Positions 4,530 to 34,315 are shown, numbered from the stretch's first letter. The stretch: 64,000 nt of DNA from an uncultured Chloroflexia bacterium (GCA_963810925.1 CAWEPF010000002.1:28233-92232); one strand, 5' to 3'. Translations and numbers: made by a program. Notes: a model not told the origin generated them from the sequence alone.

Positions 4530-4540
4530 GGCGGTCCGCG

Positions 4541-5011: not shown

Positions 5012-5073
5012 GGCGGTCTTTCGGTCTCAGCGGTATCGGATCTGGGGATCCGCGTCAGCGCGGCCGTCCCGAT

Positions 5074-5098: not shown

Positions 5099-5184
5099 TT
5101 CGGGAAACTGGCTCGGTGGTCGGCGGATTGTAGGCGTGAGGTGGTCCGGTGTCAAAGAACCGACGGGCTTCCGAAGGGGCCCGG

Positions 5185-6030: not shown

Positions 6031-6045
6031 CAGTCTGTCGTTCGG

Positions 6046-8265: not shown

Positions 8266-8413
8266 GAATCCTCCGAGGGGTTGGGCGTCGGCGCGCGGGG
8301 CGCACGAAAACGGGCGGGACACATACGAAACGCCGGCAGAGGTGCGCGTTCGCACGATCCGCCAGCGAGGCGCCTCATGGTAGCGCCAGCCCGTCCGAAG
8401 GGTCAACCGCGCT

Positions 8414-10307: not shown

Positions 10308-10322
10308 GCGGTGGTGGCTCCC

Positions 10323-11024
10323 TCAGGTACGCGCGGCGCGATCGTAGGCGGCGGAGGCCTCGCGCTCGCGGCCGGCCGCTCGGAGAAGGTCGCCGTACAG
10401 TACCAAACGCTCCGCGCCGGGCCGGGGGCCGAGGGTGGGCTCCAGCAGCGCGATACCTGCCGCGGCGATGCGCGGGTCGCGGCGCAGGGCCAGGGTCAGC
10501 TCCCGATCGCCGGTCGGCAGGTCCTCGGTGCCGTACGCCGTCGCCGCGGCGCCGAGGCGATCCTCGGCCGGGGAACCATCGGAGCCGTTCACGGGTCGCG
10601 CCGCCCAGCCCGGCGCCGGCCATTCGAGGCGGCTCGGCGCGCCGCGCCGCAGGCGCCACGCCTCGTCCGCGCCTACCGCGGTGACGACCCGCTCCAGCAG
10701 GCCCTCCGCCTGGCGCATCTCGCCAATCGCGGCGAGCCCCTCGGCTTCGACCATCATCGTGATCGAGCGCCGACGTTCGATCCCGCGGGGACGAACCGCG
10801 GTCACCGCGTCGTACGCGGCGACCGGTCGGCCAGACCGCCACAGCGACTCGGCCAGCAGGGCGCGGGCGGCATCCAGCTCCTCGGGGTTCCGCCCGGTGG
10901 CCTCCAGGGTGGCGATCCGCCGCCGGAGGGTGCCCTCCACCACGCCGTACTGCGCGGCGTCCATCTGCGCCCGGGCCAGCGCCAGCTGGTCGGGAACGAG
11001 GTCGATGCCGGTCTCGGCGGTCAT
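10323..11024 (-). CDS. hypothetical protein (Ala/Arg-rich helical, TPR-like)
   Basis: 233-aa ORF whose start overlaps the M16 peptidase stop (ATGA). Helical repeat-like composition; no motif I can name. Confidence 0.45.
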   Translation of the reverse strand: MTAETGIDLVPDQLALARAQMDAAQYGVVEGTLRRRIATLEATGRNPEELDAARALLAESLWRSGRPVAAYDAVTAVRPRGIERRRSITMMVEAEGLAAIGEMRQAEGLLERVVTAVGADEAWRLRRGAPSRLEWPAPGWAARPVNGSDGSPAEDRLGAAATAYGTEDLPTGDRELTLALRRDPRIAAAGIALLEPTLGPRPGAERLVLYGDLLRAAGREREASAAYDRAART

Positions 11025-12346: not shown

Positions 12347-12788
12347 CGGGGGACTTGAGGAGCTCCATCTGGATGAAGTCCGGATCGAGCGCCAGGTCGT
12401 CGGCGGCCATGGCGGCGCGCATCGGTGCCTCGTCCTCGATCCCGATCTCGGTCGCGGCCTGCGCGAACTCGATGACCACCTTCTCCGAGCCGATGACCAG
12501 GGTGTAGGTCAGGAGCTGGTCGGACGTCGTGTCGAACTGGAGGTAGTCGAACGAGTCGAGGTTCAGGCAGATGGACAGCGGCGTGAAGTAGGACGCGATT
12601 TCGGGGTGGTCGACCACCAGCCGCTCGACCCAGCCGGTTCCCCCGCTGGCCACCTGGTTGCCGCGGAAGTAGGCGTAGGTGACGGTCTGCTTCAGGAGTG
12701 GGCGGAGGATGTTGTAAATGTCACTCTTGTCGGTGACAAGGCCCGTGTTGATGTAGAGCTTGGCGCGATGTTCGGGCGTGGGCTCCAT
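12318..12788 (-). CDS. hypothetical acidic protein
   Basis: Only the 3' part of ORF 12318..13427 looks coding. The ATG at 12788 (MEPTPEHRAKLYINTG...) is preceded by AGGAGAAA. 156 aa with an acidic tail ...SPDGPEEDEDA; no recognisable family. Confidence 0.5.
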   Translation of the reverse strand: MEPTPEHRAKLYINTGLVTDKSDIYNILRPLLKQTVTYAYFRGNQVASGGTGWVERLVVDHPEIASYFTPLSICLNLDSFDYLQFDTTSDQLLTYTLVIGSEKVVIEFAQAATEIGIEDEAPMRAAMAADDLALDPDFIQMELLKSPDGPEEDEDA

Positions 12789-12863
12789 CGGTTTCTCCTG
12801 CGAGGTCTGGGGGAGTCTAGCATCGGTAGAATCGGCGCAAACGGCTGTTACGATGCTTGACTG

Positions 12864-13670
12864 ATGCGACTCCTGGCGGCCGATATCGGCAACACGAGCA
12901 CCGCGATCGGGCTTTTTGACGAGGGGGGCCTGGTCGGGTCGTGGCACGCCGAAACCGATCCCACCGTGACCGATGACGAGCTGGCGGCGACCGTGACCGG
13001 CCTGCTGGCCCTGGACGGGCACCACATGACCGATGTCACCGCGGCCGCGCTGGCCTGCGTGGTCCCGCCCCTGGTTCCGGGGTGGTCGCGGATGCTGGAA
13101 CGACGCGCCGGCGTGGCACCGCTGGTGATCGATGCGGCGCTGTTGAAGGGCGTGATGGCCATCGAGATCGACCGGCCCGCCGAGGCGGGCGCGGACCGCC
13201 TGGTGAACGCCCTCGCGGCGCGCGAGGAGGTGGGCGGCCCGGCGATCGTGGTCGACCTGGGCACGAGCACGAACTTCGACGTGGTCAGCGCCGAGGGCGC
13301 ATACATCGGTGGGGCGATTGCGCCGGGCCTGGGCATCTCGGTGGACGCGCTGGTGAGCCGCGCCGCCAAGCTGCCGCGCGTCGAGCTGCGGCGCCCTCCG
13401 AATGCCATCGGGACGAATACGATGCACGCCATGCAGAGCGGCGCGGTGAACGGGTACATCGGCCTGGTGAGCGGGCTGCTGGCGGCCCTGCGCGGCGAGC
13501 TCATGGAGCGCTCGCCGGCCGGCGCGCGGGTGACCGTCCTGGCCACCGGCGGGTTCGCCCTCCAGCCGTGGCTGGCCGACGTGCCGGGGATTGACCGGGT
13601 GGAGCCCGCGCTGACCCTGCGCGGCATCCGATACGCCGCGCAGCTGGTGGGCGTGGAGGCGCGCTCATGA
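12864..13670 (+). CDS. coaX: type III pantothenate kinase
   Basis: 268 aa. LAADIGNT, GADRLVNA, DLGTSTNFD, GGAIAPG and IGTNT motifs of CoaX. Confidence 0.85.
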   Translation: MRLLAADIGNTSTAIGLFDEGGLVGSWHAETDPTVTDDELAATVTGLLALDGHHMTDVTAAALACVVPPLVPGWSRMLERRAGVAPLVIDAALLKGVMAIEIDRPAEAGADRLVNALAAREEVGGPAIVVDLGTSTNFDVVSAEGAYIGGAIAPGLGISVDALVSRAAKLPRVELRRPPNAIGTNTMHAMQSGAVNGYIGLVSGLLAALRGELMERSPAGARVTVLATGGFALQPWLADVPGIDRVEPALTLRGIRYAAQLVGVEARS

Positions 13671-14962
13671 CCGACGGGTCGACCGGGACGCTGGTCGGAC
13701 GCCGCGTGGTCGTGGGCGTCACCGGGAGCATCGCGGCCTACAAGGCCGCCGTCCTCGTCCGCCAGCTCATGAACGCGGGCGCCATCGTGGACGTGGCCAT
13801 GACCCCGTCCGCCGCGGCGTTCGTGACCCCGCTCACCTTTGCGGCGCTCACCCATCGCCCGGTGATCACCGACGTCATGGCCCTGGATCCCGACCAGCAC
13901 ATCGCCCACATCGAGCTGGCGGAGGCCGCCGACGCCATCGTCCTGGCCCCGGCCACGGCCAACCTGCTCGGCAAGCTGGCCGCGGGCCTGGTGGACGACG
14001 CGGTGACCGCCATCGCCTGCGCCAGCCGAGCGCGGGTGGTGGTCGCGCCGGCCATGGACGCCGGGATGTGGACCCACCCGGCCACCCAGCGCAACGTCGA
14101 GACGCTCCGGGGCTTTGGCTACCTGGTCGTGGAGCCGGAGGTCGGGGCGCTGGCCTCGGGCCTGACCGGCATCGGTCGGTTGGCGGAGCCGGAGACGATC
14201 CTGGCCGCGGTCGAGCGCCTGTTCGCGCGGGCCGGCGACCTCGAGGGGATGCGGGTCGCGATCAGCGCCGGTGGGACGCGCGAGCCCATCGACCCGGTGC
14301 GGTTCATTGGCAACCGGAGCAGCGGCAAGATGGGCGTGGCCCTGGCCGAGGCGGCGCGCGACCGGGGAGCCACGGTGACCCTGGTCGCGGGCGCCATGTC
14401 GGTCACCCCGCCCCGGGGAGTGGACGTGGTGGAAGCAACGACCGCCGCCGCCATGCGCGAGGCCGTGCTGCGGGCGGCGCCGACGGCCGACATCCTGGTG
14501 ATGGCCGCCGCGGTCGCGGACTACGGGCCGGCCAAGCCCAGCGGTCGAAAGATCAAGCGTGGCTCCGGCAACATCAGCCTGGAGCTCGTCCCCAACCCGG
14601 ACATCATCGCCGAGGTGGGCGAGATGCCCGACCCGGTCCGACCCTTCCTGGTGGGCTTCGCCGCGGAGAGCGACGACCTGGAGGCCAACGCCACCGGCAA
14701 GCTGCGCGACAAGGGCCTGGACCTGATCGTCGGCAACCGGGTGGGCGGGCCGTTCGACGCCATCGGCTCCGAGGAGAACAAGGTCGTGGTCTTTGGCGTG
14801 GAGGGCGCCCTGACCGATTGGCCGATGCTCCCCAAGCGCCAGGTCGCCGAGCGCCTGTGGGATCTCATCGCAGACCGATATCGCGCCGGACGGCACGGCG
14901 ACACCACCCCGGAGCCCACCGCGCGCCCGCGTGCGCGCCGCTCCCGCCAACAGGACGCCTAG
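13667..14962 (+). CDS. coaBC: bifunctional phosphopantothenoylcysteine decarboxylase / phosphopantothenate-cysteine ligase
   Basis: 431 aa. N-terminal flavoprotein domain (VVVGVTGSIAAYKA, PAMDAGMW) and C-terminal CoaB domain (ISAGGTREPIDPVRFIGNRSSGKMG). ATGA overlap with coaX. Confidence 0.9.
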   Translation: MTDGSTGTLVGRRVVVGVTGSIAAYKAAVLVRQLMNAGAIVDVAMTPSAAAFVTPLTFAALTHRPVITDVMALDPDQHIAHIELAEAADAIVLAPATANLLGKLAAGLVDDAVTAIACASRARVVVAPAMDAGMWTHPATQRNVETLRGFGYLVVEPEVGALASGLTGIGRLAEPETILAAVERLFARAGDLEGMRVAISAGGTREPIDPVRFIGNRSSGKMGVALAEAARDRGATVTLVAGAMSVTPPRGVDVVEATTAAAMREAVLRAAPTADILVMAAAVADYGPAKPSGRKIKRGSGNISLELVPNPDIIAEVGEMPDPVRPFLVGFAAESDDLEANATGKLRDKGLDLIVGNRVGGPFDAIGSEENKVVVFGVEGALTDWPMLPKRQVAERLWDLIADRYRAGRHGDTTPEPTARPRARRSRQQDA

Positions 14963-18402: not shown

Positions 18403-18513
18403 GGGTGGCGGACGTCTCCCGTTGGTTGTTCTGGTCGTGGGTGCCCGGCGAGCGTCGCTCGGCGAAAAGGCGCGCCGATTATAGGGGCCGCCCCCCGGAA
18501 ATCGTCTAGAGGT

Positions 18514-19700
18514 CTAGACCAGTTCGACGGCCAGGGCCACCGCTCCCCCGCCGCCGAGGCACAGGGTCGCGAGGCCCCGCTTCCCGCCGCGATTGCGGAG
18601 GGCGTACAGGAGCGTCGTGAGCACGCGTGCCCCGGATGCACCGATGGGATGGCCCAGCGCCACGGCGCCGCCGTTGACGTTGACCTTGTCCCAGTCGAAG
18701 CCCAGGGCGTTGCCATCGGCCAGGACCTGGGCGGCGAAGGCCTCGTTGATCTCGATCAGGTCGAAGTCGGCCAGCGGGATGCCCACCTTCTCGACCAGCC
18801 GCTGCACCCCGTCGATCGGTGCCTCGAACAGCCACTCGGGGGCGACGTCGGCCTGGGCGTAGCCGAGGATGCGGGCCATGGGCTGGAGTGCCGGCATCGG
18901 CGACCCGATCGCCGGAGGCGAGGACCAGGGCCGCGGCGCCATCGGTGATGCCGGGGGAGTTGCCGGCCGTGACGGTGCCGGTGCCATCGGTCTGGAAGGC
19001 GGGCTTGAGGTTGGCCAGCGCCTCGGCCGAGGTGTCGGGGCGGGGCCCTTCATCGGTGTCCACGATGGTCGGGCCCTTCTTGCCGGGCACCTCGACCGGG
19101 ACGATCTCGTCCGCGAACGCGCCCGACGCCTGCGCGGCCAGGGCCCGCTGGTGGGAGCGCAGGGCGAAGGCGTCCTGGGCCTCGCGGCTGACCTGGTGCT
19201 TGTTTGCCACCCGCTCGGCGTGGATGCCCATGTGGACGTCGCAGGCGGTGCACCACAGGCCGTCGTACACGGTGGCGTCCACGAGCTCCTGGTTGCCGAG
19301 CCGGTAGCCGGCCCGGGCACCGGGGAGCAGGTACGGGCCCAGGTTCATGTTCTCCATGCCCCCGGCCACGATCACGGCCGCGTCACCGGCCGTGATGGAC
19401 GCAGCGCCCAGCATCACGGCCTTCAGGCCGGAGCCGCACACCTTGTTGATGGTCGTGGCACTGACCCCGTCCGGCAGCCCGGCCTTGCGCGCCGCCTGGC
19501 GGGCGGGGGCCTGGCCCGCGCCGGCCTGGATGACCTGGCCCATGAAGACCTCGTCCACGGTCGCCGGGTCCATGCCCGACCGCTCGACCGCAGCCCGGAT
19601 GGCCACCGCTCCCAGGTCCGTGGCCGGAACCGTGGACAGGCGCGCCCCCGAACTTGCCGATGGGCGTCCGGGCGGCGGACAGGATGAAGACGTCGGTCAC
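18514..19700 (-). CDS. acetyl-CoA C-acetyltransferase (thiolase), two frame interruptions as sequenced
   Basis: N-terminus [19 protein letters not shown] (ORF 19383..19748), core with the active-site Cys in [10 protein letters not shown] (ORF 18506..19606), and C-terminus NEAFAAQ...[19 protein letters not shown]...CLGGGGAVA (ORF 18514..19320). Frame shifts near ~19641 and ~18889. Confidence 0.85.
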
Positions 19701-19933
19701 GCCGTCATGGTACCCGGGGTCCTCAGGCCAGCGAGATCGCGACCTCATCCAGCAGGTCGTATACGTCCTGCATCCCGTCCTCCATGCCGGTCGCGAGGAT
19801 CATGTCCCGGACCTCAGGGCTGTACGCTTCGGCCAGTGGCGTCATGAGAGTCCGACGTCCTGCTTGGCGAACGTCTGCTGGCACCCTTCCGGGAAGATCG
19901 ATACGCCGAGCCGCTTCCGCGCATCTTTACAGT

Positions 19934-19965
19934 GAGCGGGCCTGCCTGAGAGGGCCGCAGCGAGG
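19934..19965 (+). promoter_or_regulatory. conserved leader box, copy 1 (upstream of sigma-1)
   Basis: GAGCGGGCCTGCCTGAGAGGGCCGCAGCGAGG ends 8 nt before the GTG start. Near-identical copies occur at 22144 and 24147. It contains an imperfect inverted repeat GCGGNCC/GGGCCGC and ends in an SD-like GAGG. Confidence 0.5.
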
Positions 19966-19973
19966 CGAAGCGC

Positions 19974-20521
19974 GTGGAGCGTGACCTGGTGATCCGAGCG
20001 CAGCACGGCGACGAGGACGCCTTTTCATCGCTGGCGGCGGCCCTGGGCGATCGATGGCTGAACGTCGCGCAGCGAATCGTCCGCGACGTCGCCATGGCTG
20101 AGGACGCGACCCAGGCGGCGATCGTCGCCATCTGGCGGCAGCTCCCCCGCCTCCGCGATCCGGACCACTTCGAGGGCTGGGCCTACCGCATCCTCGTCAA
20201 CGAGTGCCGGTTGGAACTGCGCCGCGAGAAGCGGGCGATTCCGACCATGAGCCTCACGCCGGACGACGGATCGGTCCACGACGGCGGTACCGCTCTGGCC
20301 GTTCGCGACCAGCTCGAACAGGCATTCCTCCGGCTGCCGGTCGAGCATCGGGCCATCCTCGTCCTCCAGCATTACCTCGGCCTCACGCTGGATCAATGTG
20401 CCGAGCGGCTTGCTATTCCCGTGGGGACCGCCCGTTCCGGAGCCACTCCGCGAAAGGCCAGCTGCGAGCCGCCTTGGAAGCCGATGAACGGGCAATCGCG
20501 CGCGAGGTGCAGTCGGCATGA
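19974..20521 (+). CDS. ECF (sigma-70 family, group IV) RNA polymerase sigma factor, cassette 1; one frame interruption
   Basis: Region 2 (DATQAAIVAIWRQLPRLRDPDHFEGWAYRILVNEC) and region 4 (HRAILVLQHYLGLTLDQCAERLAIPVGT). The C-terminus ...RSHSAKGQLRAALEADE... continues in ORF 20204..20521 after a shift near ~20439. Confidence 0.85.
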
Positions 20522-21957
20522 GCGGCAGGACGAACCGCCCGCTTGACGTCGACACAGCTCTCACGGACTGGCTGCGCGGGAGTCCACGCCTCTCGGCCGA
20601 CCACGTGGTCGCCTCGGCGTTGACCGAAGTCGCGAAGACCCGTCAGCCGCGGAGCCTGTTCTTCGTCGACGCGACGGTCTTCCGTGTCGGGCTCATCGCG
20701 GCGGCCGTGGCTGCCTTGGCGATTGGACTGGGACTCGGTCTCGGCCCGCACCTGATTGGGACCGATGCATCACCCACGCCGTCGATCGGCCCCGCCCCGA
20801 GCGACGAGAACCCACCGTTGGTCTCGTACACGAACCCTGTGCTCGGCTATGAACTCCTCCTCCCACCCGCGTGGGTGGCAAGTGCGGAGCCGATGTCGGA
20901 CAACCGGGAGGGGGTACCGCCGGGGACCGCGGTGCCAGGCGTCGTTCGCTTCGGCAACTCGGAGGTCAGCCTCCAGCCGGCGCTGATGATCAGCGTCGGG
21001 ACCGCGGATGGCGAGGTATTCATCTGCGAGACGGGCATATGCGCGCCGCAGACCGTCGCAGACCTCGACGAGCTTGATGCCGCGGTGGCGAGCGTCCCCG
21101 CTTCTGCCCTCGGTGTGCCTCTCCTCTCAACAACCGAGGTCCTCGTGGACGGAGAAGTGGGTCGCATCGAGTCCCCGCGTTCCGTCACCTGTGACGATGG
21201 CTGTTGGTTCAGCATGCGATCCGGGATGACGTGGTTGCCAGGTAGGCCACAAGTGCATCGCACGGTGACCTTCCTGCACGATGGTCGCCCTGTCGTGCTC
21301 GCCTTCGACTACTTCTCGGCGAGCCTCGAAGAGGTTCGCGCCATCGTCGAGAGCTTCCGTTTCCTCGACTCGGACGCCACCACTCCGACCCCGAGCGACA
21401 TCGAGGCTGGGTTCGCCCACTACACGGCGGAGGCGGGCACGTACGAAGTCAGCGTGCCCTCCGCCTGGGGCCTTCGGACCGACCTCTTTGGCGACGGAGC
21501 GTTCTATGGGATCGGCGATCCGTCCCTGCCGGTCACTGGCTGGGGCGAGGGCTACGAACGGCCGTACACAGCTCTGGTGACGATCTCAGTGGGTGATTCC
21601 CAGGGCCGGATCCGTCTGTGCCAGGCCAGCGGATGTTTCAGAACCTACGAGGTGGGTAACACCATCGAGGAAATGGACGCTGCCATCGCCTCCCTGACGC
21701 AGCCGGAAGGGGGGTTTCCCAGCATGACCGAGTACCGCTGGGAGGTGAGGCTGGACAGTGAACCTGCGCTCTTTGTGGGCATCACCTCGCCGCACGGCTG
21801 GACAGCGACCCCCCAGTTCCGACACGTATTTGCCGTGCACGAGGGGCGCCCGCTGGTCATCGCTTTCGAGCATTGGGCCCTGATGAATGCGACTGGTGAT
21901 GAGCGTCAATCGTGGCGGCGGCTGATCGATACCTTCCGCTTCCTGGATGGATGGTGA
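20518..21957 (+). CDS. anti-sigma-like single-pass membrane protein with two extracytoplasmic 'HDGRP/FRFLD' domains (cassette 1, intact)
   Basis: 479 aa. The ATG overlaps the sigma stop (GCATGA). The ~55 aa N-terminal segment has LTDWL...ADHVVASAL...RQPRS, followed by the TM VGLIAAAVAALAIGLGLGLG and a Pro/Ser/Thr linker. Two repeats each start GYE/TYE-x3-P-x2-W, contain a Cys pair, and end HDGRPVVLAF...SFRFLD or HEGRPLVIAF...TFRFLD. Confidence 0.8.
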   Translation: MSGRTNRPLDVDTALTDWLRGSPRLSADHVVASALTEVAKTRQPRSLFFVDATVFRVGLIAAAVAALAIGLGLGLGPHLIGTDASPTPSIGPAPSDENPPLVSYTNPVLGYELLLPPAWVASAEPMSDNREGVPPGTAVPGVVRFGNSEVSLQPALMISVGTADGEVFICETGICAPQTVADLDELDAAVASVPASALGVPLLSTTEVLVDGEVGRIESPRSVTCDDGCWFSMRSGMTWLPGRPQVHRTVTFLHDGRPVVLAFDYFSASLEEVRAIVESFRFLDSDATTPTPSDIEAGFAHYTAEAGTYEVSVPSAWGLRTDLFGDGAFYGIGDPSLPVTGWGEGYERPYTALVTISVGDSQGRIRLCQASGCFRTYEVGNTIEEMDAAIASLTQPEGGFPSMTEYRWEVRLDSEPALFVGITSPHGWTATPQFRHVFAVHEGRPLVIAFEHWALMNATGDERQSWRRLIDTFRFLDGW

Positions 21958-22102
21958 AAGGAACGCTCGACCATCGCCTCATGTTCCTGGCGGGCGTGGT
22001 GGCCTTCGGGGCGGGACAGCGGCTCCGCAGTTCATCACGTTGTCATCGACGCTTCGGGTTCACCGATTGAGGGCCGCCTGCCTTCATCCGTGACACCGGC
22101 TC

Positions 22103-22175
22103 GATAATCGAACCGCGGCCACCTCTCCCCCACTCCTCCCATTGAGCGGACCTGCCCAAGAGGGCCGCATCGAGG
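22103..22175 (+). promoter_or_regulatory. conserved upstream module, copy 2 (GATAATCGAACC + 29 nt + leader box)
   Basis: GATAATCGAACC at 22103..22114 and box GAGCGGACCTGCCCAAGAGGGCCGCATCGAGG at 22144..22175. Same elements and same 29-nt spacing as copy 3. The box ends 7 nt before the GTG start. Confidence 0.5.
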
Positions 22176-22182
22176 TCAGCGA

Positions 22183-22726
22183 GTGGACCCACGGATCGTG
22201 GAACAGGCGCAGCGGGGCGACCAGCAGGCGTTCGCCGAAATGGCCCACGCCCTGGGGTCACGCCTCTACGCGATCGCCTACCGCATCCTCCGCGACCATG
22301 ACCGGGCCGATGACGCGGCCCAGCACGCGATCGTCACCATCTGGCGCGACCTTCCCAGCCTTCGTGACCCGTCGCGCTTCGAAGCCTGGGCGTATCGGAT
22401 CCTTGTGCACGCCTGCTACGCGGAGGCGCGGCAGGGTCGGCGCGACGACCATCCGTCCGACGGGGTCCCGGATGGGGTAACGCCCGATGACGCGCTGTCC
22501 GTCGCAGACCGCGACGAGCTTGACCGGGCCTTCCGGCGCGTGCCGGCCGACCAACGGGCGATCCTGGTCCTCCAGCACTACCTGGACATGGGCCTGCCCC
22601 GAGATCGCCGAGCTGCTGCATGTCCCGCTCGGCACCGTCAAGTCGCGGAGCCACGCCGGACGCCGGGCGCTCCGCGCCGCCCTGGAAGCCGACGCGCGCC
22701 CAGCCGCAGGAGCGCAACCAGCATGA
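22183..22726 (+). CDS. ECF sigma factor, cassette 2; one frame interruption
   Basis: DAAQHAIVTIWRDLPSLRDPSRFEAWAYRILVHAC and QRAILVLQHYLDMGLP. The remainder (EIAELLHVPLGTVKSRSHAGRRALRAALEADA) is in ORF 22487..22726. Extra C in a CCCC run near ~22598. Confidence 0.85.
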
Positions 22727-24080
22727 GCACCTTCGGACGCCCGCTGACCGACGACGGACTGATCCGCGCGCTCGACCACTGGCTCGACGACGGGCCGGTC
22801 GTGGCACGCCGACCTCATGGTCGAGTCCGCGCTGCGGACGGCCGCCGGATGCCGCAGCGCCGCTGGCGAGGTCGCGTGCTTCGCTTTACTGGCGGATCAC
22901 CGCTTGTTCCTGTTGGCCTGACGCTGGCTGCCGTGGCGCGGTCGTGGCCCTCGGCGTCGGCCTCGGACAGGTGCTGCCGCTCCCTGGCACCCAGGCAACG
23001 CCGACGCCTGAGCTCACCGACAATCCGACCCCGGACGCCTCCAGCGCGCCGTCGGGTTTGGTCATCTTCACGAACCCTCGGGACGGCTACGAGCTGACGC
23101 GTGCCGGCCAGTTGGACGCCGGGCGAGTTCCTCTCCAATCCGCCGGGAACGATGCGGTTTGGCGCTGCACACAGCGACAACGGTCCAAGTTCCTTCGGCG
23201 CCTTGACGGTGAGCATCGGCAGCACCGACGGGATCGTGCGCGACTGCGCTCCTGGCCCTTGCCGTCCGATCGTCGCGACCACGATCGATGCACTGGACGC
23301 CGCCATCGCGAACGGCAGCACGCGGAAGAGGCGTTTGGATCACGACCACCGATGTCGATGTGACATTGGACGGCGAGCCGGCCCGCTGGAGTACGTGACC
23401 TTCGGCGGCGGACTGATCGAGGCCGGTCCGCAGTTCCACCACCTCTTCGCGATCCATGACGGACGCCCCATCGTCCTGTCGTTCGACAAGTACGCCCAGG
23501 GCTTGGGGGTCATTCGGACGACATCGGGTGGGTCGAGTCGCTCATCCGGGGTTTCCGGTTCCTCGAAGTCGCGCCGGATTCGCCTACGACCGGTACGTTC
23601 TCATTCCCCGAGTTCGGGTATGAGCTCTCCTTGCCGGAGGGTTGGACCCAGACGGGGACGCTCGATCCATCGGCGTTCGCCTTGCAGAGCGGCAACGGAA
23701 CGGCGACGGTGGTTGTCGGCGACGAGGCGGGTCGGATCTGGACGTGCACCGAACCGGCAGGACCCTGGGAGGTCTGTCAGCGGGTCACCGCGCCCGGGCT
23801 TGATGCCCTCACGGCAGCGGTCGAGCCCCGAAGTGCGGACGAGCACGGGATTCCTGTGCCGGGGACGATTACCCGGGACACCATGCTTCTCGACGGCGAG
23901 GACGCGAACCTGGTCGGCGTCGGGGCGTACGAGTACCCCGCCCGCGGCGGGGAACACGTCACGTACATCTTGGCTTTCCATGACGGACGCCCGTTCATCC
24001 TCCGCTTCCACACGACGTTGGAAGGGCCGCCGGACGGGTGGATCAGCGACTTCCTTTCGGGTTTCCGATTCCTCGATTGA
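22723..24080 (+). pseudogene. cassette 2 anti-sigma-like membrane protein with two HDGRP/FRFLD domains, multiply frameshifted
   Basis: The ATG overlaps the sigma-2 stop (GCATGA). Homologous segments are spread over three frames: MSTFGRPLTDDGLIRALDHWLDDGP...; TM AVVALGVGLGQVL; GYELT/VPASW...CAPGPC...HDGRPIVLSF; IRGFRFLE; GYELSLPEGW...HDGRPFILRF...SGFRFLD. ORF-breaking shifts near ~22935, 23100 and ~23500. Confidence 0.7.
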
Positions 24081-24105
24081 CGCCGGCCAGCGGCCGTGCG
24101 CCCCT

Positions 24106-24178
24106 GATAATCGAACCGATCCAGCCGAACCCGCATCGTACGAACCGAGCGGGCCTGCCCAAGAGGGCCGCACCGAGG
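24106..24178 (+). promoter_or_regulatory. conserved upstream module, copy 3 (GATAATCGAACC + 29 nt + leader box)
   Basis: GATAATCGAACC at 24106..24117 and box GAGCGGGCCTGCCCAAGAGGGCCGCACCGAGG at 24147..24178, 7 nt before the GTG start. Confidence 0.5.
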
Positions 24179-24185
24179 TACTGAC

Positions 24186-24732
24186 GTGGAGCGGAGGCTC
24201 GTGGAGCTGGCCCAGCGAGGAGACCAGAAGGCGTTCTCCGAGATCGCCTTCCTCGTCAGCCCACGCCTGTTCCCCGTCGCGCAGCGGATCCTCCGCGACT
24301 ACCACCGGCGCCGAGGACGCCACCCAGCAGACCCTGGTCCAGATCTGGCGCAAGCTGCCGAAGCTCTCGGACCCCGACAAGTTCGACGGGTGGGCGTATC
24401 GGATCCTGGTCAACACCTGCTACGCCGAGGCCCGGAAGAGCAAGCGCCATCCCGACGACCTCCGCCTCCTGGAGACCGATCGCGCCAGCGCCGACGAGTC
24501 GCTGAGCGTCGCCGACCGCGACATGCTGGAGCGGGCGTTCGACCGCCTGCCGGCTGAGCAACGCGCGGTGCTTGTCCTCCAGTACTACCTGGACCTGGGC
24601 CATCCGCAGATCGCCGAGATGCTCGGCGTCCCGCTGGGGACCGTGAAGTCCCGAGCGTCAAGTGGACGCCAGGCCCTGCGAGCGGCTCTGGAAGCCGATG
24701 CGCGGACGGGTGTTGGGCGGTGGACGGCATGA
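24186..24732 (+). CDS. ECF sigma factor, cassette 3; one frame interruption
   Basis: N-terminus MERRLVELAQRGDQKAF (ORF 24186..24557). After a shift near ~24308 the remainder is in ORF 23101..24732: EDATQQTLVQIWRKLPKLSDPDKFDGWAYRILVNTC...QRAVLVLQYYLDLGHPQIAEMLGVPLGTVKSR. Confidence 0.85.
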
Positions 24733-26144
24733 CCGAGCGCGAGGGCCCGATGACCGAGCTGCAGTTCGACGAGCTGTTGGGGACCTGGCTTGCCGATGGC
24801 GCCCATGCGACGGCGGACCGCATCGCCGAGAACGCGATGCTGGAGATCGCGACCGTTCCACAGGAGCGGAACTGGCTGGCTGCCATGCAGTCGTCGTTCG
24901 CGTCCGCGCCGGTGGCGTGGGCTGCCGCGATCCTGGCGTTGGCGGTCGGGATCGGACTCCTGGTGGGCACTCGGCTGGTGGGCAACCCCAATCCGAGTCC
25001 GACTCCGGACCCCAACGCGCTCGTCCTGCAAAGTTACGAGGACGCGGGCTACGAGCTGGAGATCCCCGCCTCGTGGTCGGAGGTCGATTCCGGATACGCA
25101 GATGCCAAGATGTGGTCTGGTCCTGGCGGCACGCTCATGATCAGCTATGGGACGACGATCTTCGACGGTGGCGCGGTGACGATCTGCGCGCCGCCGCTGC
25201 CGGATTACAACACCTGCATGGCGATCGAACACGGGTATTCGGTCCCGGTCGTTCCGAGCGATTACACGGGTCCGATCTCGCAGGAGGGCTGGCTCGACCG
25301 CTGCGACGGCGCCTGCCCGGTGGATTACACCGAAACCGTCCTAGACAAAGAGCCCGCGGGTCAGGACCGGGCAGTGATCACCGATTTTCAGCTCACTTAT
25401 GTGTCGACGTTCCACAATTACCGGCCGATCATCCTGTACTGGTCCGAGCCGCTGGCGACCGCCGACCTGACTCGGGTCGAGGCGATGCGGGACAGCTTCC
25501 GCTTCCTCGACCAATCCGCCGGAGGCAGCCCGCCACCATTCGTCGATCCGACCGAGCTGGTTCTGTACTCGAATCCGGATGACGGCTACGAGATGCTCGT
25601 GCCTCGCTTCTGGCAGGAGAGTGCGGCGGCCATCCTGGATCCGGACGGGGAACCCCTATCCACGCGTGCAGTCACTTCGGGACCGGACGGTGCCGAGGAA
25701 ACGGACTCCGGGTGTGATGATCAGCCTGGGTGAGCCCGATGGATCGGTCTACGCCGAATTGCCACGGACCGCTCCAGGAGGGACTGGGACATTGCCTCCC
25801 CCTGAATGCCGCCAATTTGCGGCCACGTCGCTCGACGAGTTGCAGGCGGAAGTAACCAGTGTCCCGACCTACTACGTGGAAGGGGTTGGCCGGCATTGGG
25901 AGCCGTGCCGACCGAGGAGAGCGGCGACCTCGTGCTCGGCGGTGAGCCGGGCCGATTCGAACGCCCCGTGTATCTGACCGACTCGCATGGGTGCCTCGGC
26001 TGCCCGTGGATGCTCTACAACGTGTTCGCAATCCACGACGGACGACCGGTGGTGCTCGCCTTCGACTGGTGGAACATCGACTTCGAGCAGATCAGCGCCG
26101 ACTACTTCGACCAGATGCTGACCAGCTTCCGCTTCCTGGACTGA
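24729..26144 (+). CDS. cassette 3 anti-sigma-like membrane protein with two HDGRP/FRFLD-type domains; two frame interruptions
   Basis: The ATG overlaps the sigma-3 stop (GCATGA). N-terminal module LGTWLADGAHATADRIAENAMLEIATVPQERNW, then TM AAAILALAVGIGLLVG. Domain 1 is GYELEIPASW...SFRFLD. Domain 2 (GYEMLVPRFW...HDGRPVVLAFDWW...TSFRFLD) is split over ORFs 24720..25733, 25579..25977 and 25806..26144, with shifts near ~25713 and ~25903. Confidence 0.75.
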
Positions 26145-26164
26145 TTCGGCCGCCGCACCCGTCG

Positions 26165-26203
26165 TTTTCGAACCGATCCGCTCCGAGTCGCATCGAACGG
26201 TGC
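26165..26203 (+). promoter_or_regulatory. partial copy of the upstream module directly before the orphan membrane protein
   Basis: TTTTCGAACCGATCCGCTCCGAGTCGCATCGAACGGTGC shares TCGAACCGATCC...GCATCG(T/A)ACG with 24111..24143. No leader box and no sigma gene follow; the ATG follows immediately. Confidence 0.35.
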
Positions 26204-27931
26204 ATGAACGGATCGCTGGATCGCCGAAACGGATTCCTCGTGGCGGTCGTGGGGGGCGGGGTGATCATGGCCACGCTCGCGCTGCTCCTCGTGGTCCCGC
26301 CAGGCGGTCCCGCTCAAGTGGCCCCTACGGGCAACGCACCGGGACCCTCGCCGTCGCCTCGAACCAACGAATACATGGTGCTGTTCCAAAATCATGCAGA
26401 CGGCTACGAGGTCACACTGCCGGCCGCCTGGAAGGTGCGAGAAAGCGCAGACACGATCGAGCCGCTGTTTTCCGGTGTGAGGCGATTCGATCTGGACGCG
26501 TCCGGCCGATTTGACGGGTTGACCGCGCTCACGATCATGGTCGGGGAACCGTCCGGCGAGTTCTACAACTGCTTCGGTGGCCCGTGTAACAAGGCAACGG
26601 CGAGCGGCCTGGATGAGCTCGCCGAGCTCATCCACATTCTTCCGAGCGACATCGAGGCCCAGTATCTGAGAGGGGGAGACGCGCGACTCGACGGCGAGCC
26701 GGCGCGATGGGAGTCGCTCAGGCCCAGCGGATTCGCCGGCGGTCCGCCCGCGTACTACACCGTGATGGCGATGCATGACTCCAGGCCCGTCATCCTCCAG
26801 TTTGACCACTGGGCGATCAAGTGGGGCTACTGGTCCCAGCGCACCGTTGACGAGATCGTTGCCAGCTTCCAGTTCATAGAGCCAGTAAGCGGCGGATATT
26901 TGCCTCCGCCCGCCAGCCCAATTCCTGCCCTCAGCTCGCGCTGGGAAGGCCAGCAGCTCGTGTTTGCCGAGGCGGGCTTTCAGGTTCGTATCCCTCGATT
27001 CTGGAATGTGGACGCACAGGGTTCGAACGTTGTGATGGGCGGTGAAGGCACGCATTTCTCGGTCCGGGTCGGCGATGCCCAGGGTCGGCTCCTGACCTGC
27101 GACCAGCCCGACCGGCCGTGGGAGCGCTGCAGGGACGTGGTCGTTACCACCCTCGACGAGTTCGCCGACGCGGTGAAGCAAGGCCCTGTCGTAGGCTGCG
27201 GCGATCTCTGCCCTCCCGCGGCGAGCGGCGGCTCTGCATCCCTGGCAGGCGAAGACGCCTGGCGCGTAACAATCTTCGGGTACGAATATCCGGCTCACGG
27301 CGGCGAGAACGCCCTCTACATCCTCGCGCTACACGAAGGCCGGCCGTACTTCCTCCGATTCCACACGTCTGCCGACCGCAAGCCGGGATCCCTGTGGGAC
27401 GAGATCGTTGCCTCCTTCGAATTCGTGGATTCGCCGACCGCCGGAGGGCAGACCTTCACGTCCACTGAGGCGGGCTTCGCGATCGACGTGCCCGCGAGCT
27501 GGGTCGAGGAGCCCGACGACGATCCCAACGCTGTATGGATCCATGGCTCCGAGGGCGGCCTCAAGATCCGAGTGGGCGATGGGTCGGGGAACATTCTCAA
27601 CTGCAACGTTCCGCCGAGTTCGCCGTGTGTCGAGGTCCTGGTCGGATCGGTTGAGGATCTGGTCGAGCTGCTCACACCCACGGGCCGGCGCTCCCCGCCG
27701 TTCGTGCCAGGTTCGGTATGGCTGAGCCGCAAGGCGTCCTCGTTGGGGAATATTTCGGCCGTGCAGATGACCGTTAGGGCGTGGGAAAGCGGCCCGTCGG
27801 CTCGGGCGTATACCCGCCACTACGTGGTGGCGATGGACCGCGGTCGCCCCGTCATCATCAAGTGGGAGCCCGGGACCTTCCACGGTCGCGAGTTCCAGCA
27901 GCTGTTGTCTTCGTTCCGCTTCCTGGACTGA
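26204..27931 (+). CDS. orphan membrane-anchored protein with three HDGRP/FRFLD-type domains (no partner sigma, intact)
   Basis: ATG at 26204 within ORF 25991..27931; 575 aa. Short N-terminus, TM FLVAVVGGGVIMATLALLLVV, then three repeats: GYEVTLPAAW...HDSRPVILQF...SFQFIE; GFQVRIPRFW...HEGRPYFLRF...SFEFVD; GFAIDVPASW...DRGRPVIIKW...SFRFLD. Confidence 0.8.
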   Translation: MNGSLDRRNGFLVAVVGGGVIMATLALLLVVPPGGPAQVAPTGNAPGPSPSPRTNEYMVLFQNHADGYEVTLPAAWKVRESADTIEPLFSGVRRFDLDASGRFDGLTALTIMVGEPSGEFYNCFGGPCNKATASGLDELAELIHILPSDIEAQYLRGGDARLDGEPARWESLRPSGFAGGPPAYYTVMAMHDSRPVILQFDHWAIKWGYWSQRTVDEIVASFQFIEPVSGGYLPPPASPIPALSSRWEGQQLVFAEAGFQVRIPRFWNVDAQGSNVVMGGEGTHFSVRVGDAQGRLLTCDQPDRPWERCRDVVVTTLDEFADAVKQGPVVGCGDLCPPAASGGSASLAGEDAWRVTIFGYEYPAHGGENALYILALHEGRPYFLRFHTSADRKPGSLWDEIVASFEFVDSPTAGGQTFTSTEAGFAIDVPASWVEEPDDDPNAVWIHGSEGGLKIRVGDGSGNILNCNVPPSSPCVEVLVGSVEDLVELLTPTGRRSPPFVPGSVWLSRKASSLGNISAVQMTVRAWESGPSARAYTRHYVVAMDRGRPVIIKWEPGTFHGREFQQLLSSFRFLD

Positions 27932-27947
27932 ACGAGCGCCGCCGGCG

Positions 27948-28051
27948 CGGATGGCAACCGCTCCCAGGTCCGTCGCAGGAACTGTTGAAAGGCCCCCGCC
28001 GAACTTGCCGATGGGCGTCCGGGCGGCAGAGAGGATGAGGACGTCGGTCAA
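27948..28051 (-). pseudogene. remnant of a thiolase 5' end (first ~35 codons only)
   Basis: The start of ORF 27329..28051 reads [37 protein letters not shown] and then loses all similarity. By eye, the DNA aligns with 19596..19700 (5' end of the full thiolase) with about a dozen mismatches and one indel. Confidence 0.75.
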
Positions 28052-28116
28052 CCGACAATCGTGCTCGGAGCGTGGCGCATACTCCGAACCCGCCTGTGCC
28101 CAACCTCTTCGTCCGG

Positions 28117-29166
28117 ATGATTCCGGCGCGCAGCCTCACACTTGGCGCGACATTGCTCGTGGTCGTCGGCTGCGCCACGTCACCTGGCGGATCTTCGACC
28201 CCTGTCGGGAGTGCATCGGCCGACCCGCTCCAGGCACTCGCCGATGAAAACGGCAGCGGGGTCATCCTTGCGTATGGCACGTCCGCGGGCTTGGAATCCG
28301 CTGCGGCCGGCGCAGATGGCGATGGCTCGGCGATAGCGCCGGAGAGCGCCTGGTGGGTCGGCTCCGTCGCGAAGATGATCACGGCGACCGCGATCCTCCA
28401 GCTCGTGGACGCGGGCGAGGTGGCCCTCGATAGTCCGGCTGCGGCTTACCTCGAGGGGTCGGTCTCGGACGCGTTCACGATCCGTCAGCTCCTCCAGATG
28501 CGAAGCGGGGTCCCGGGTACGTCCGAACACATCGGCGCGTGCCCGTCGGCTGGAATCGTCCAGACCGCCCTGGACCTGGCGGCTGAGCCGAAGTTCGAGC
28601 CAGGATCGCGGTTCGATTACTCGAACACGAATTACATCCTGCTTGGGCAGGTCATCCGGACGGTCACGGCGAGCGACCCCGCGACGGTCATCCGAAGCGG
28701 CATCTTCGATCCACTCGGCATGGATGACTCGTTCTTCTGGGACAGCGAGACGGGTGCGGCCATCTCAAGCCACGCGGCCGGCGCGGGCGTCCCGATCCCC
28801 GGCGGATGTCCCCTGCTGGACGAGACGGTCGGGACCGATGGGTGGCTGGTGTCCAGCGCGCAGGACCTGGACCGCTTTTTCCGGGGCCTTTTCGGGGGCC
28901 AGCTCATCAGCGAGGCAAGCCTGGCTGCCATGACCGATACGAGTGTGAATGATGGCGAGTTCCTGCAATTCGGGCTGGGCCTGATGGAGGAGGCGCAACC
29001 CTCTCACCCGGGCACGACGCTTTACGGGTTCGTCGGCACGCCCGAGGACTACGAGACCACCGCGTACCACGATCCGGCAACGGGCACCACGGTCGTCGTG
29101 ATGTACGCATTCCAGGGCACGGCGCTTGCCTGGCACCTGTACGACCTGGCGATCGCAAACCCGTAG
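28117..29166 (+). CDS. serine hydrolase (beta-lactamase/transpeptidase-like), predicted lipoprotein
   Basis: ORF 28072..29166. ATG at 28117 gives MIPARSLTLGATLLVVVGC (lipobox). S-x-x-K motif GSVAKM and YSNTNY (Y-x-N) motif of class C beta-lactamase-like esterases. Confidence 0.75.
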   Translation: MIPARSLTLGATLLVVVGCATSPGGSSTPVGSASADPLQALADENGSGVILAYGTSAGLESAAAGADGDGSAIAPESAWWVGSVAKMITATAILQLVDAGEVALDSPAAAYLEGSVSDAFTIRQLLQMRSGVPGTSEHIGACPSAGIVQTALDLAAEPKFEPGSRFDYSNTNYILLGQVIRTVTASDPATVIRSGIFDPLGMDDSFFWDSETGAAISSHAAGAGVPIPGGCPLLDETVGTDGWLVSSAQDLDRFFRGLFGGQLISEASLAAMTDTSVNDGEFLQFGLGLMEEAQPSHPGTTLYGFVGTPEDYETTAYHDPATGTTVVVMYAFQGTALAWHLYDLAIANP

Positions 29167-29179: not shown

Positions 29180-31130
29180 TCAGGCGGGGGTGCCGTCGTC
29201 CTCGAAGAGGCGGTCGATCTGAGTCGGCCAGTTCTCCTGGACCACCCGCAGCTTCGTCTTCAGGGTGGGAGTCAGCTCCCCGTTTTCCTCGGAGAGGGCC
29301 CGGGGAAGCAGCGCGATCCGGCGCGGGCGCTCGTAGACCGCGAAGTCCTCCAGCAGGTTCCGCACGTCCCCCTCGACCAGCTGCCGGACGGCCTTCTCCT
29401 CCACCAGCTTCTCGGGCGCCATGCCGCCCAGCCCGTTGGCCTCCGCCCACGGCAGCAGCTCGTCGAAGTTCGGCGCGATCAACGCCCCGGTGTACGGGTG
29501 GCGGTCGCCCAGGATGACGGCCTGGGCGATGTACTTCGAGGCGGACAGCGCGGCTTCCATCGGTCCCGGTGACACGTTCTTGCCGTTGCCCAGGACGATG
29601 ATGTTCTTGAGCCGATCGGTGATCTTGATCCGACCGATGGGGTCCAGCTCACCGATGTCCCCGGTGTGGAACCAGCCGTCGGGGTCGATGGCCTTGGCCG
29701 TTTCGGCGGCGTTGTTCAGGTAGCCGAGCATGATCTGCGGGCCACGCACCTGGATCTCGCCCGTCTCGGGATCAATGCGGACTTCGGTCGCCGGCGCCGG
29801 ACGGCCCACCGTTCCGAACACGAAGTCATCGGGCCGGTTGATGCTCACCAGCGGGCTCGTCTCGGACAGCCCGTAGCCCTCGAGGATGAGGATGCCCAGG
29901 GCGTAGAAGAACTCCCCCACCTCGCGCGACAGCGGCGCCGAGCCAGAGACGAAGTAGCGGACCCGGCCACCGGTCCGGGCCTTGACCCGGTGGTAGACGA
30001 GCTTGTCCGCGATGGCGTGCTGGACCTTCAGGCCCAGCCCATCCCCGCGCCCGGCGACGTGGTTCTCGTACCGCTTCCGCCCCACGCCAATCCCCCAGTG
30101 GAAGATCCGCTGCCGCAATCGGCGGTGACGCCTCGACCGATGCCACGACCCGCCCGTAGACCCGCTCGTAGAAGCGGGGCACGGCGGCCATGACGGTGGG
30201 CTGGACCTCGACCATGTTGTCCGCCAGCCGCTCGATGAGCGATTCGGCGTACACGACGGTGGACCCGTGGGCCAGCGGAATGATCTCCCCGGTCAGCCGC
30301 TCGAAGATGTGGGACAGGGGCAGCCACGACAGGAAGACGTCGGCCTCGTAGAAGTCGACGATCTGGACCGCGGCCTCGTAGTTGTAGAGCAGGTTGCCGT
30401 GGCGAATCATCGCCCCCTTGGGGTTGGCGGTCGTCCCCGAGGTATGGATGACCGTGGCCAGGTGCTCGCGGTCGATCGCCCGCCAGCGCGCCTCCCAGCC
30501 GGCCCGCTGCGCCTCGTCGAACGCGCGGCTGCCGAGCTCCTCCAGGGTCAGGGTGCCGGCCGGGAACTTGCCCGACGTGTCGAACGTGATGACGTGGCGG
30601 AGGTTCGGGCAGTTGGCCCGGATGGACTCGACCTTGGCGGCCTGCTGCGCGTTCTCGACGAACACGGCCACCGCGCCGGTGTTGTTGAGGATGAACTCGG
30701 CCTGGCCGGCCTCGGTCTGGGGGTAGATGGGACACGAAACCGCGCCGAGCGCCCAGGCCGCGATGTCCGCGACCAGCCATTCGGGGCGGGTGCGGGACAT
30801 GATGCAGATGGCGTCACCATCGGCGACGCCCAGGCCCTGCAGGCCGAGCGATACGTCGGTGATCCAGTCCCAGAACTCGGCGTATGAGCGGCTGACCCAG
30901 GTCGGCAGCGGCTCGCCCCGTCCCTCCGCGGCTTCGCGCTGGGCCTTCGACGGCTTCCAGCGCAGCGCCTCCTTGTTCGGGATGCGCTCCACGGACCGAT
31001 GGATGAGCTCCACCACGTTCCGCGCCTTCTCGGACTCGGGGAGCAGGAGGGTCTCCACCTCGTTCCACATGCGGCGTGGGGCAGGGGCGGTTCCGGCGGC
31101 CACCGGCGGGGCGGGCGGGGCGGCGGTCAT
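29180..31130 (-). CDS. fadD: long-chain acyl-CoA synthetase (AMP-forming), one frame interruption
   Basis: ORF 29826..31130 has IHTSGTTANPKGAM (AMP-binding motif). ORF 29180..30118 has EGYGLSETSP, WFHTGDIG, and GRIKITDRLKNIIVLGNGKNVSP. Shift near ~30119. Confidence 0.85.
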
Positions 31131-33690: not shown

Positions 33691-34272
33691 CTAGCGGGCC
33701 GTCGGATGACCGATGAAGCTGAGGAACTCCGCGCGCGTCTTGGCATCACGGCGGAAGGTGCCCAGCATGGCCGAGGTGACCATCGTCGCGCCCGGACGAC
33801 GAACGCCGCGCATGGCAATGCACAGGTGGGTCGTCTCGAGGACCACGCCCACCCCCTTGGGCTCCAGGCGGGTCATCAGGAATTCGGCGATCTGAGACGT
33901 CATCCGCTCCTGGAGCTGAAGCCGATGGGCGAACAGGTCCACCACCCGGGGCACCTTCGACAGACCGATGACCCGGCCCCGCGGCAGGTAGCCCACGTGC
34001 GCCGTCCCGAAGAACGGGACGAGGTGGTGCTCGCACAGCGAGTACACCTCGATGTCGCGGACGACCACCATCTCGTCGTAGTCGACCTCGAACGTCGCCT
34101 CGTCCAGGATCGAGTCGGGATCGGTGTGGTAGCCCTCGGTCAGCTGTTCCAGGGTGCGTCGCACCCGGCCGGGCGTGTCGCGCAGACCGGCGCGGTCGGG
34201 GTCCTCGCCGATCCCTTCCAGGATCGCCCGGACCGCGGCCTCCATCGATGCAGCGCGCTCATCGGTTCCCAT
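33691..34272 (-). CDS. folE: GTP cyclohydrolase I
   Basis: ATG at 34272 within ORF 33691..34569; 193 aa. Reads [39 protein letters not shown], and HLCIAMRGV. Confidence 0.9.
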
Positions 34273-34315
34273 GGCCGCCGATGCTAGCAGCCGATTGGCG
34301 GGGTATCGTCCGGCC

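Follow-up and report, generated by a model that had tools for sequence, protein, structure and literature searches.

A tandem array of ECF sigma genes and putative anti-sigma partners with PsbP-like ectodomains in an uncultured Chloroflexia bacterium

The scheme that couples a sigma factor of the extracytoplasmic function (ECF) type to a single-pass anti-sigma factor is a textbook one, and families of paralogues with swapped sensors are known as well, for example RsgI/SigI. SigI does not belong to the ECF sigmas, carbohydrate-binding modules serve as the sensors of RsgI, and the SigI/RsgI pairs are dispersed. RsiV, for its part, has an ectodomain and an N-terminal anti-sigma domain of families different from those described here. 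In this work, we focus on a 64,000-nucleotide (nt) stretch of DNA from an uncultured Chloroflexia bacterium (GCA_963810925.1 CAWEPF010000002.1:28233-92232), hereafter the window, which carries at positions 19896-27931 (plus strand) an array of three ECF sigma genes (sigma1 to sigma3), three genes for partner membrane proteins (P1 to P3) and one sigma-less paralogue of the latter (P4). We consider it likely that these are three autoregulated operons, each for an ECF sigma and a single-pass anti-sigma with PsbP-fold sensor ectodomains, joined by a sigma-controlled orphan paralogue at a chromosomal hot spot.

Among the described systems, sigmaV/RsiV of Bacillus subtilis and Clostridioides difficile has the same arrangement of an ECF sigma gene followed by that of a single-pass anti-sigma, the ectodomain of which is the direct sensor (PMC4183432, PMC9044953). 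By this likeness, autoregulation would be expected at our locus as well, and release by regulated proteolysis is taken as the default model. The sigmaI/RsgI pairs of Clostridium thermocellum offer another parallel, since one genome holds many paralogous pairs with a common sigma-binding N-terminus and transmembrane (TM) helix and varied modular sensors (PMC12203970).

Sigma factors and partner membrane proteins

The three sigmas contain sigma2 and sigma4 domains only (Pfam Sigma70_r2 and Sigma70_r4_2), and intact orthologues, of 176-181 amino acids (aa), reach 75-82 bits with TIGR02937, the general ECF model, whose cutoff is 42.9. By domain content and score they are thus ECF (group 4) sigma-70 factors, as an earlier examination of the window from its sequence alone (hereafter the sequence-only reading) had assigned them. 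They are 52-58% identical to each other; sigma1 is 87% identical to an intact sigma of contig L003, and sigma3 has 98% aa identity with sigB of the sister contig L001, which is intact. The closest NCBIfam subfamily by score is the actinobacterial SigE family (TIGR02983), which comes first for all intact sigmas with 108-118 bits, yet these values lie under its curated cutoff of 141.55. In Streptomyces, the context of SigE is CseA/B/C, to which the partner proteins found here are unrelated.

From its N-terminus on, each partner has a short two-helix module, then a TM helix, a Pro-rich linker and finally the ectodomain. In the predicted model of P1, the two helices occupy aa 9-20 and 27-40 and the TM helix aa 53-74, followed by a disordered Pro-rich linker and two confident domains; in P1 to P3, the single TM helix comes with an Arg-rich segment, in agreement with an N-in topology. 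P4 has a short tail and a TM anchor, without any N-terminal module of the sigma-binding type. The module is about 45 aa long, its consensus is TTDADLDRILRAWLAEGPERAPDRVVEAALAEVATTPQRR, and it contains neither Cys nor His. We followed its distribution in the best 155 of the 526 representatives of the repeat family described below: 73 start with the module (all but one of them also having a TM helix), 27 have only a TM or lipoprotein anchor, as in P4, and 55 are N-terminally truncated fragments, so that about 100 are N-terminally complete. This module is also found at the start of partners whose ectodomains are unrelated, namely pB of L001, a 280-aa and a 258-aa protein of L004 and a 302-aa protein of L005. 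This argues for the module being the sigma-side part of these proteins and the ectodomain an exchangeable sensor. The identity matrices of the sigmas and of the N-terminal modules correlate (r = 0.85), and the module probably defines a family of sigma-binding domains that is new in sequence.

The genes of the sigmas and of their partners are tightly coupled. In all three cassettes, the ATG of the partner (20518, 22723 and 24729) overlaps the stop codon of the sigma gene by 4 bp (ATGA), once the frameshifts considered further on are corrected, and the ATG of P4 lies 60 bp past P3. The seven gene starts given by the sequence-only reading were all correct, three GTG and four ATG codons being present at these positions. 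The coupling extends to other genomes, in which it had been proposed to look for it: an ECF sigma gene lies directly upstream, with the 4-bp overlap, in eight of eight contigs (L001, L003, L004, L005, L006, L007, L008 and a contig of the Logan assembly), counting those in which the member examined has the module or includes its own start. In a ninth contig, L002, the member P0013 is N-truncated and the sigma is found two genes upstream, with one short open reading frame (ORF) in between. The position co-oriented with and directly 3' of an ECF sigma gene, occupied in three cases out of three in the window and in the eight other contigs, is the genomic signature of anti-sigma factors. Together with the single-pass architecture, it supports the anti-sigma-like character that the partners had been given from the start.

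The repeat domain and its fold

The ectodomains of P1, P2, P3 and P4 are built from two, two, two and three copies of a repeat of about 165 aa. These nine copies, as counted by the sequence-only reading, can be aligned over ~165 columns, in which P, W, G, G, C, RP and F.F are invariant, and each of them matches a family profile made from 29 sequences at E 1e-23 to 1e-51; tblastn found no tenth copy in the 64-kb window. Their landmarks are G-[YF]-E...P..W, (I/V)SVG, a hairpin Cys pair, LDEL, H-[DE]-G-R-P and SFRFLD. Pairwise identities are of 20-39%. The likeness noted earlier between the second repeats of P2 and P4 holds, at 37% as compared with 28-35% for pairs within one protein, and a second subtype groups the first repeats of P1, P2 and P4 with the second of P3 (36-39%). 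Judging from these values, the repeats are old paralogues. The family had been described as locally amplified, but the amplification is not recent, since the repeats share at most 39% and the sigmas 52-58% identity.

The Cys pair is conserved at about 90%, and in the model it falls on a pair of neighbouring strands (residues 64-67 and 74-77). The conserved pair expected by the sequence-only reading is thus present, and the disulfide that it placed there is made plausible, as a hairpin disulfide, by this conservation and position. The single Cys that had been noted in the second repeat of P3 is correct for the hairpin position but not for the whole domain, where a second pair, CLGC, occurs.

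No Pfam or NCBIfam model matches the repeat above threshold, in keeping with the earlier failure to place it in a named family. Below threshold, PsbP of Pfam matches 11 of 28 full-length members (best E 3.3e-4), with 13.9-15.3 bits for P4 and L005 against a gathering threshold of 23.5 for PF01789, and in a profile search of the PDB sequences the top 10 matches, and 11 of the 12 listed, are PsbP, all of them above E 0.05. The first repeat of P4 was then modelled with AlphaFold2 from the family alignment (predicted local distance difference test, pLDDT, 89; predicted template modelling score, pTM, 0.87). Foldseek against the PDB ranks PsbP/CyanoP first (E 7e-6 to 4e-4, probability 1.0, TM-score 0.5-0.6), and 17 of the 18 matches at E <= 1e-3 are PsbP-family chains or PsbP-containing complexes (TM-score 0.47-0.62). 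The next neighbours are Apa of M. tuberculosis, a Jonesia protein (3lyd), BT_1490, Tsi3, DcrB and EagT6; DcrB is a weak match (E 0.02, TM-score 0.42-0.49), and no Pfam match to DUF1795/DcrB was found. On the strength of this model, the repeat is a new, divergent sequence family of the PsbP/Mog1/DcrB-type alpha-beta-alpha sandwich. The resemblance to PsbP, first given together with DUF1795/DcrB as an impression, is thus borne out at the level of the fold.

The repeat shares with the PsbP/CyanoP and Mog1-PsbP-DcrB fold group (PF01789; DcrB 6e8a; Apa/FAP 5zxa; Tsi3 3wa5; Jonesia 3lyd) the same predicted sandwich and the N-terminal G-[YF]-x...P..W hairpin motif. It is only 11-17% identical to members of this group, scores under the Pfam gathering score, and differs from them by its Cys-x4-9-Cys hairpin, its H-[DE]-G-R-P turn and its SFRFLD C-terminal strand. 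It also occurs as one to four tandem copies on sigma-coupled membrane anchors, whereas no solved PsbP-fold relative is a sensor of a sigma pathway, and nothing relevant turned up when we searched the literature for anti-sigma factors with PsbP, Mog1 or DcrB domains.

A word-indexed search gave 13 family proteins, none of them with a Pfam domain, and an exhaustive profile search gave 526 representatives (clusters at 50% identity) at E <= 1e-3, of which 251 at <= 1e-10 and 122 at <= 1e-30. Among the best 155 of these representatives, 49 have one repeat, 81 have two, 22 have three and one has four, while two have none above the length cut-off. The family occurs so far only in metagenome assemblies and in metagenome-assembled genomes (MAGs) of uncultured organisms; one of the MAGs that carry it bears the label 'uncultured Chloroflexia bacterium' and belongs to the Microflora Danica long-read set. 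The scan of the genome collection relied on the single pattern GRP[VI]VLAFD and found one named genome, so that the taxonomic range is poorly sampled. A 3507-aa protein, P0147, gives 12 partial matches, all to profile positions 35-92 (the Cys-hairpin region), which could reflect a repeat unrelated to ours or a remote use of this sub-motif.

Promoters, layout and turnover of the locus

A motif of the form RATYGAAC-N17-C(A/G)TC is shared upstream of 12 sigma genes from 6 contigs, and it resembles the -35 and -10 elements of ECF promoters. With its spacer fixed, this pattern has two matches in the 64 kb, one upstream of sigma3 and the other upstream of P4. The L003 orthologue of P4 has the same element at the same distance from its start. 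Because the motif lies 9 nt before the ATG and is conserved in L003, P4 looks sigma-dependent, with a leaderless or near-leaderless mRNA. For the sigma genes, a leader, GAGCGGRCCTGCCCAAGAGGGCCGCACCGAGG, is conserved between the motif and the GTG. In the window, GAGCGGRCCTGCCCAAGAGGGCCGC is found at 19934-19958, 22144-22168 and 24147-24171 (plus strand), between the motif and the ribosome-binding site, and it contains an imperfect inverted repeat, GCGGRCC/GGNCCGC, which raises the question of an operator or of a 5' stem of the mRNA. The leader has no match in Rfam, and we retain it as a conserved sequence but not as a demonstrated structured RNA: RNAalifold gives a 4-bp stem with little covariation, and the folding energies are not below those of shuffled controls. 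The features of the array are collected in Table 1.

Table 1. Features of the sigma/partner array, in coordinates of the window
Feature	Position	Strand	Remarks
Promoter-like motif, cassette 1	19896..19927	+	GATCGATAC ... GCATCTT; aligns with the shared motif, putative function
Conserved leader, cassette 1	19934..19973	+	GAGCGGGCCTGCCTGAGAGGGCCGC and GAGG Shine-Dalgarno; kept among paralogues and relatives
ECF sigma 1	19974..20521	+	GTG start; ~182 aa once one indel near 20440 is corrected; Pfam Sigma70_r2 5e-13, r4_2 2e-7
P1	20518..21957	+	479 aa, intact; repeats 20815-21375 and 21409-21954; Pro-rich linker
Promoter-like motif, cassette 2	22106..22140	+	AATCGAACC ... CCCACTCC; aligns with the shared motif
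ECF sigma 2	22183..22726	+	GTG start; one extra C at ~22598; Pfam Sigma70_r2 and Sigma70_r4_2
P2	22723..24080	+	~7 frame switches in the window assembly; repeats ~23053-23541 and 23592-24077
Promoter-like motif, cassette 3	24109..24145	+	AATCGAACC-N17-CATCGTAC; aligns with the shared motif
ECF sigma 3	24186..24732	+	GTG start; one indel near 24305; Pfam Sigma70_r2 and Sigma70_r4_2
P3	24729..26144	+	two frame switches, both in domain 2; repeats 25017-25517 and ~25554-26141
Promoter-like motif of P4	26167..26200	+	TCGAACCGATCCGCTCCGAGTCGCATC; near-copy of the sigma3 motif; ends 9 nt before the ATG
P4	26204..27931	+	575 aa, intact; three repeats, 26369-26887, 26951-27436 and 27446-27928
Thiolase 5' remnant	27945..28050	-	~36 codons; marks the junction on the right of the array, with homology that ends at the stop codon of P4

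The window, part of an NCBI/ENA contig of 177,932 bp, has a G+C content of about 70%, and the array lies between a thiolase gene (18506-19748, minus strand) and an ORF of the beta-lactamase family (28072-29166, plus strand). The thiolase remnant next to the stop codon of P4 suggests either a rearrangement at the right edge of the array or the fusion of two thiolase-adjacent loci. The beta-lactamase-family ORF (364 aa, PF00144, E 1e-41) has an N-terminal signal-like segment and is absent from the same place in L001.

Cassette number and ectodomains vary between genomes that are otherwise ~90% identical. L001, the flanks of which are 88-93% nt identical to those of the window, has two cassettes between thiolase on the left and acyl-CoA synthetase on the right; L004 has three cassettes and L006 only one, both with acyl-CoA synthetase on the right; L002 has thiolase on the left, then a sigma, a 92-aa ORF and P0013; and L003 has 13 repeats in 12 kb. 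The ectodomains turn over as well. The partners of sigma3 and of its orthologue, sigB of L001, share only residues 1-91 (60% identical), beyond which their ectodomains are unrelated. A more distant Chloroflexia MAG, L005, retains an ectodomain of the P3 type (58% identical over 267 aa), so it is in L001 that the ectodomain has been replaced, with a breakpoint at the linker.

The L001 protein that is partner to the sigma3 orthologue (12387-14030, plus strand) has a 450-aa ectodomain without Pfam match, in which several S/T-x-D-x-G-x-x-W (Asp-box-like) motifs can be seen by eye; it may be a beta-propeller. L003 comes from the same sample as L001, and its positions 1-12120 hold the 13 repeats in at least 7 proteins, a denser array than that of the window; it has two called sigma genes and a candidate third (a 183-aa ORF at 1974-2525, with no Pfam match). 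Elsewhere in the window, strong AT-skew excursions are found at 34001-36000 (-0.31) and 52001-56000 (+0.18 to +0.23), the former coinciding with a 675-aa ORF that has no Pfam match in the L001 annotation. A second glutamate-dehydrogenase-like stretch at 45923-47118 (minus strand), with 68% nt identity to the glutamate dehydrogenase region of L001, is probably a paralogue.

Mechanism, rival readings and known systems

The reading that we favor is built on the gene order, the translational coupling, the domain architecture, the fold and the linkage of the whole family to ECF sigmas, as well as on a conserved promoter motif and on how rapidly cassettes and ectodomains turn over; the parts that we infer are the binding of the sigma, the signal, the mechanism of release and the regulon. 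Each operon would consist of an ECF-type promoter, a conserved leader, an ECF sigma of ~180 aa and a translationally coupled membrane protein. The cytoplasmic two-helix module of ~45 aa would keep the cognate sigma at the membrane, while the two extracytoplasmic PsbP-fold domains, probably each with a hairpin disulfide, would bind an extracellular or envelope ligand. The binding or the loss of this ligand would free the sigma, with regulated proteolysis of the anti-sigma as the default assumption. The free sigma would then transcribe its own operon from a promoter of the RATCGAAC-N17-CRTC type, and its targets would include the three-domain orphan P4, which bears a copy of this promoter.

Several observations weigh against this scheme. 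The N-terminal module (searched as the N-terminal 81-84 aa) has no match to any known anti-sigma domain in Pfam, NCBIfam or the PDB sequences, and its profile finds two short matches only in a set of 5.8 billion proteins. With about two helices, it is shorter than the class I anti-sigma domain, an N-terminal domain of ~80-90 aa and four helices to which the zinc-associated anti-sigma (ZAS) type adds a HxxxCxxC motif: no match of the zf-HC2 or RskA type was found, and AlphaFold2 shows two helices only, with moderate confidence. The lack of Cys and His, together with the lack of Pfam, NCBIfam and PDB-sequence matches, means that it is not a ZAS domain. Furthermore, about a quarter of the N-terminally complete members lack the module, which implies that the ectodomain also works outside sigma signalling. 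Lastly, the promoter motif is short, and at least two matches are found in 17 of 100 shuffles; since the count in the window is not significant by itself, the support for the motif comes from its position and its conservation across genomes.

The quality of the assembly also has to be considered, as only P1 and P4 are uninterrupted ORFs in the window. The array contains about 12 frame switches, one in each sigma gene, ~7 in P2 and two in P3, on which the sequence-only reading was silent. Frameshifts also split the thiolase gene and a long-chain acyl-CoA synthetase gene (29180-31130, minus strand), and alignment with L001 (flanks ~90% identical) reveals scattered indels of 1-2 nt in both assemblies. 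In L001, the thiolase and acyl-CoA synthetase genes are intact, but that of glutamate dehydrogenase is broken; that different genes are broken in each points to long-read indel errors in both assemblies. The Logan assembly of run ERR12036786, which carries the same genes, provided an independent check for the end of sigma1, P1, sigma2 and the first 165 aa of P2. There, the last 59 aa of sigma1 are in frame and overlap P1, P1 differs from ours by one substitution, sigma2, with its r2 and r4 domains, reads through intact as 180 aa, and P2, whose start overlaps sigma2 by 4 bp, is unbroken over its first 165 aa, while the window has four frame switches across these same stretches. The indels at the end of sigma1, in sigma2 and at the start of P2 are thus assembly errors, and a pseudogene reading of the frameshifts was rejected for sigma1, sigma2 and the N-terminus of P2. 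Intact relatives exist for P2 (P0008 for domain 1, 67% identical; P0009 for domain 2, 57% identical), and the L005 orthologue of P3 is intact as well (477 aa). Based on the Logan assembly and on these relatives of P2 and P3, we take all seven genes as functional.

Could the array instead stem from faulty assembly, or be a cluster of pseudogenes in decay? The presence of some 12 frameshifts over 8 kb, of which seven are in P2, speaks for this, but the possibility is negligible: the flanking housekeeping genes show the same type of indel, the Logan contig restores the stretches of sigma1, sigma2 and P2 that it covers, Flye and SPAdes contigs of other samples also contain intact orthologues and comparable arrays, and paralogues that are at most 39% (repeats) and 58% (sigmas) identical make collapsed or expanded repeats impossible. 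The main rival is rather that the partners are not anti-sigmas at all but envelope proteins, of a surface-binding, chaperone or lipoprotein-like kind in the manner of DcrB, LpqN or Apa, co-transcribed as the main target of a sigma that is controlled otherwise. Indeed, the relatives with the PsbP fold that are in the PDB are envelope or secreted proteins without a signalling role, 27 of the ~100 N-terminally complete members have, like P4, only a membrane or lipoprotein anchor, the N-terminal module shows no detectable similarity to known anti-sigma domains, and P4 itself appears to be a sigma target. This rival is, however, weakened by the modular N-terminus and the invariable coupling to a sigma: a conserved cytoplasmic module precedes the TM helix in partners with unrelated ectodomains, it is always encoded directly after an ECF sigma gene and overlapping it, which is the signature of an anti-sigma and not of a cargo, and the ectodomain has been swapped while the sigma (98% identical) and the module were retained. 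We therefore hold it to be unlikely.

Another rival would make the array a set of neutralising or immunity-type binders directed at secreted antagonists (muralytic toxins, for instance), as Tsi3 is at Tse3, with arms-race paralogues that the sigma only induces. Tsi3 and EagT6, immunity and chaperone proteins of type VI secretion systems, are among the structural neighbours, cassettes and ectodomains turn over fast between genomes with ~90% identical flanks, and tandem divergent paralogues reach the density seen in L003. However, the Tsi3 and EagT6 matches are weak (E 0.01-0.2) and PsbP is far better, and the neighbourhoods examined contain no toxin, secretion-system or polymorphic-toxin genes, the flanks being devoted to fatty-acid metabolism, which makes this rival very unlikely; an immunity or decoy role for the orphan P4 is nevertheless possible. 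There is also a more speculative version, of low probability, in which the locus would be a fast-evolving repertoire of ECF-coupled receptors, with ectodomains swapped at the Pro-rich linker, each recognising its own extracellular macromolecule (which could be a competitor's muralytic enzyme or toxin), and P4 as a decoy or neutraliser. The idea of a competitor enzyme as ligand comes from the analogy with RsiV-lysozyme and Tsi3-Tse3. Were it true, this would be a bacterial sensing array akin to innate immunity, built on a fold without any earlier link to sigma signalling.

Operons of an ECF sigma and its single-pass anti-sigma thus remain the reading that we retain. The envelope-signalling interpretation first proposed from the sequence is supported, and none of the findings that could have overturned it was made, be it a repeat belonging to a well-characterised family, homologues never adjacent to ECF sigmas or an array created by assembly; on this last point, comparable arrays are present in independent assemblies, one of them SPAdes. 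A previously unnamed domain family is thereby defined (526 clusters at 50% identity), with a PsbP-like fold and likely as the sensor half of ECF anti-sigmas. The general picture of ECF signalling is unchanged. The sister genomes amount to a natural experiment, in which sigmas that are 98% aa identical and the same N-terminal module go with unrelated ectodomains, and cassette number varies. They offer handles on how ECF pathways gain new inputs, as well as a better annotation of uncultured soil lineages.

How does this locus finally compare with the known systems? The class III anti-sigma RsbN, partner of BldN, has a very short cytoplasmic sigma-binding segment before its single TM helix and no zinc motif, much like the putative sigma-binding module here (PMC6101532). 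Sequence comparison found no similarity between the N-terminal module and the short anti-sigma domains of classes II and III. The class II (CnrY-type) anti-sigmas are likewise short, placed before a single TM helix and devoid of a zinc motif. Unlike RsiV, the ectodomain here is made of two repeats of predicted PsbP fold, and the cytoplasmic part is an unclassified two-helix module of ~45 aa. Unlike the sigmaI/RsgI pairs, those described here stand in tandem at one hot spot. The scheme itself is not new; the novelty lies in the family of domains, in the short module at the N-terminus and in a hot spot, well documented, at which ectodomains are exchanged.

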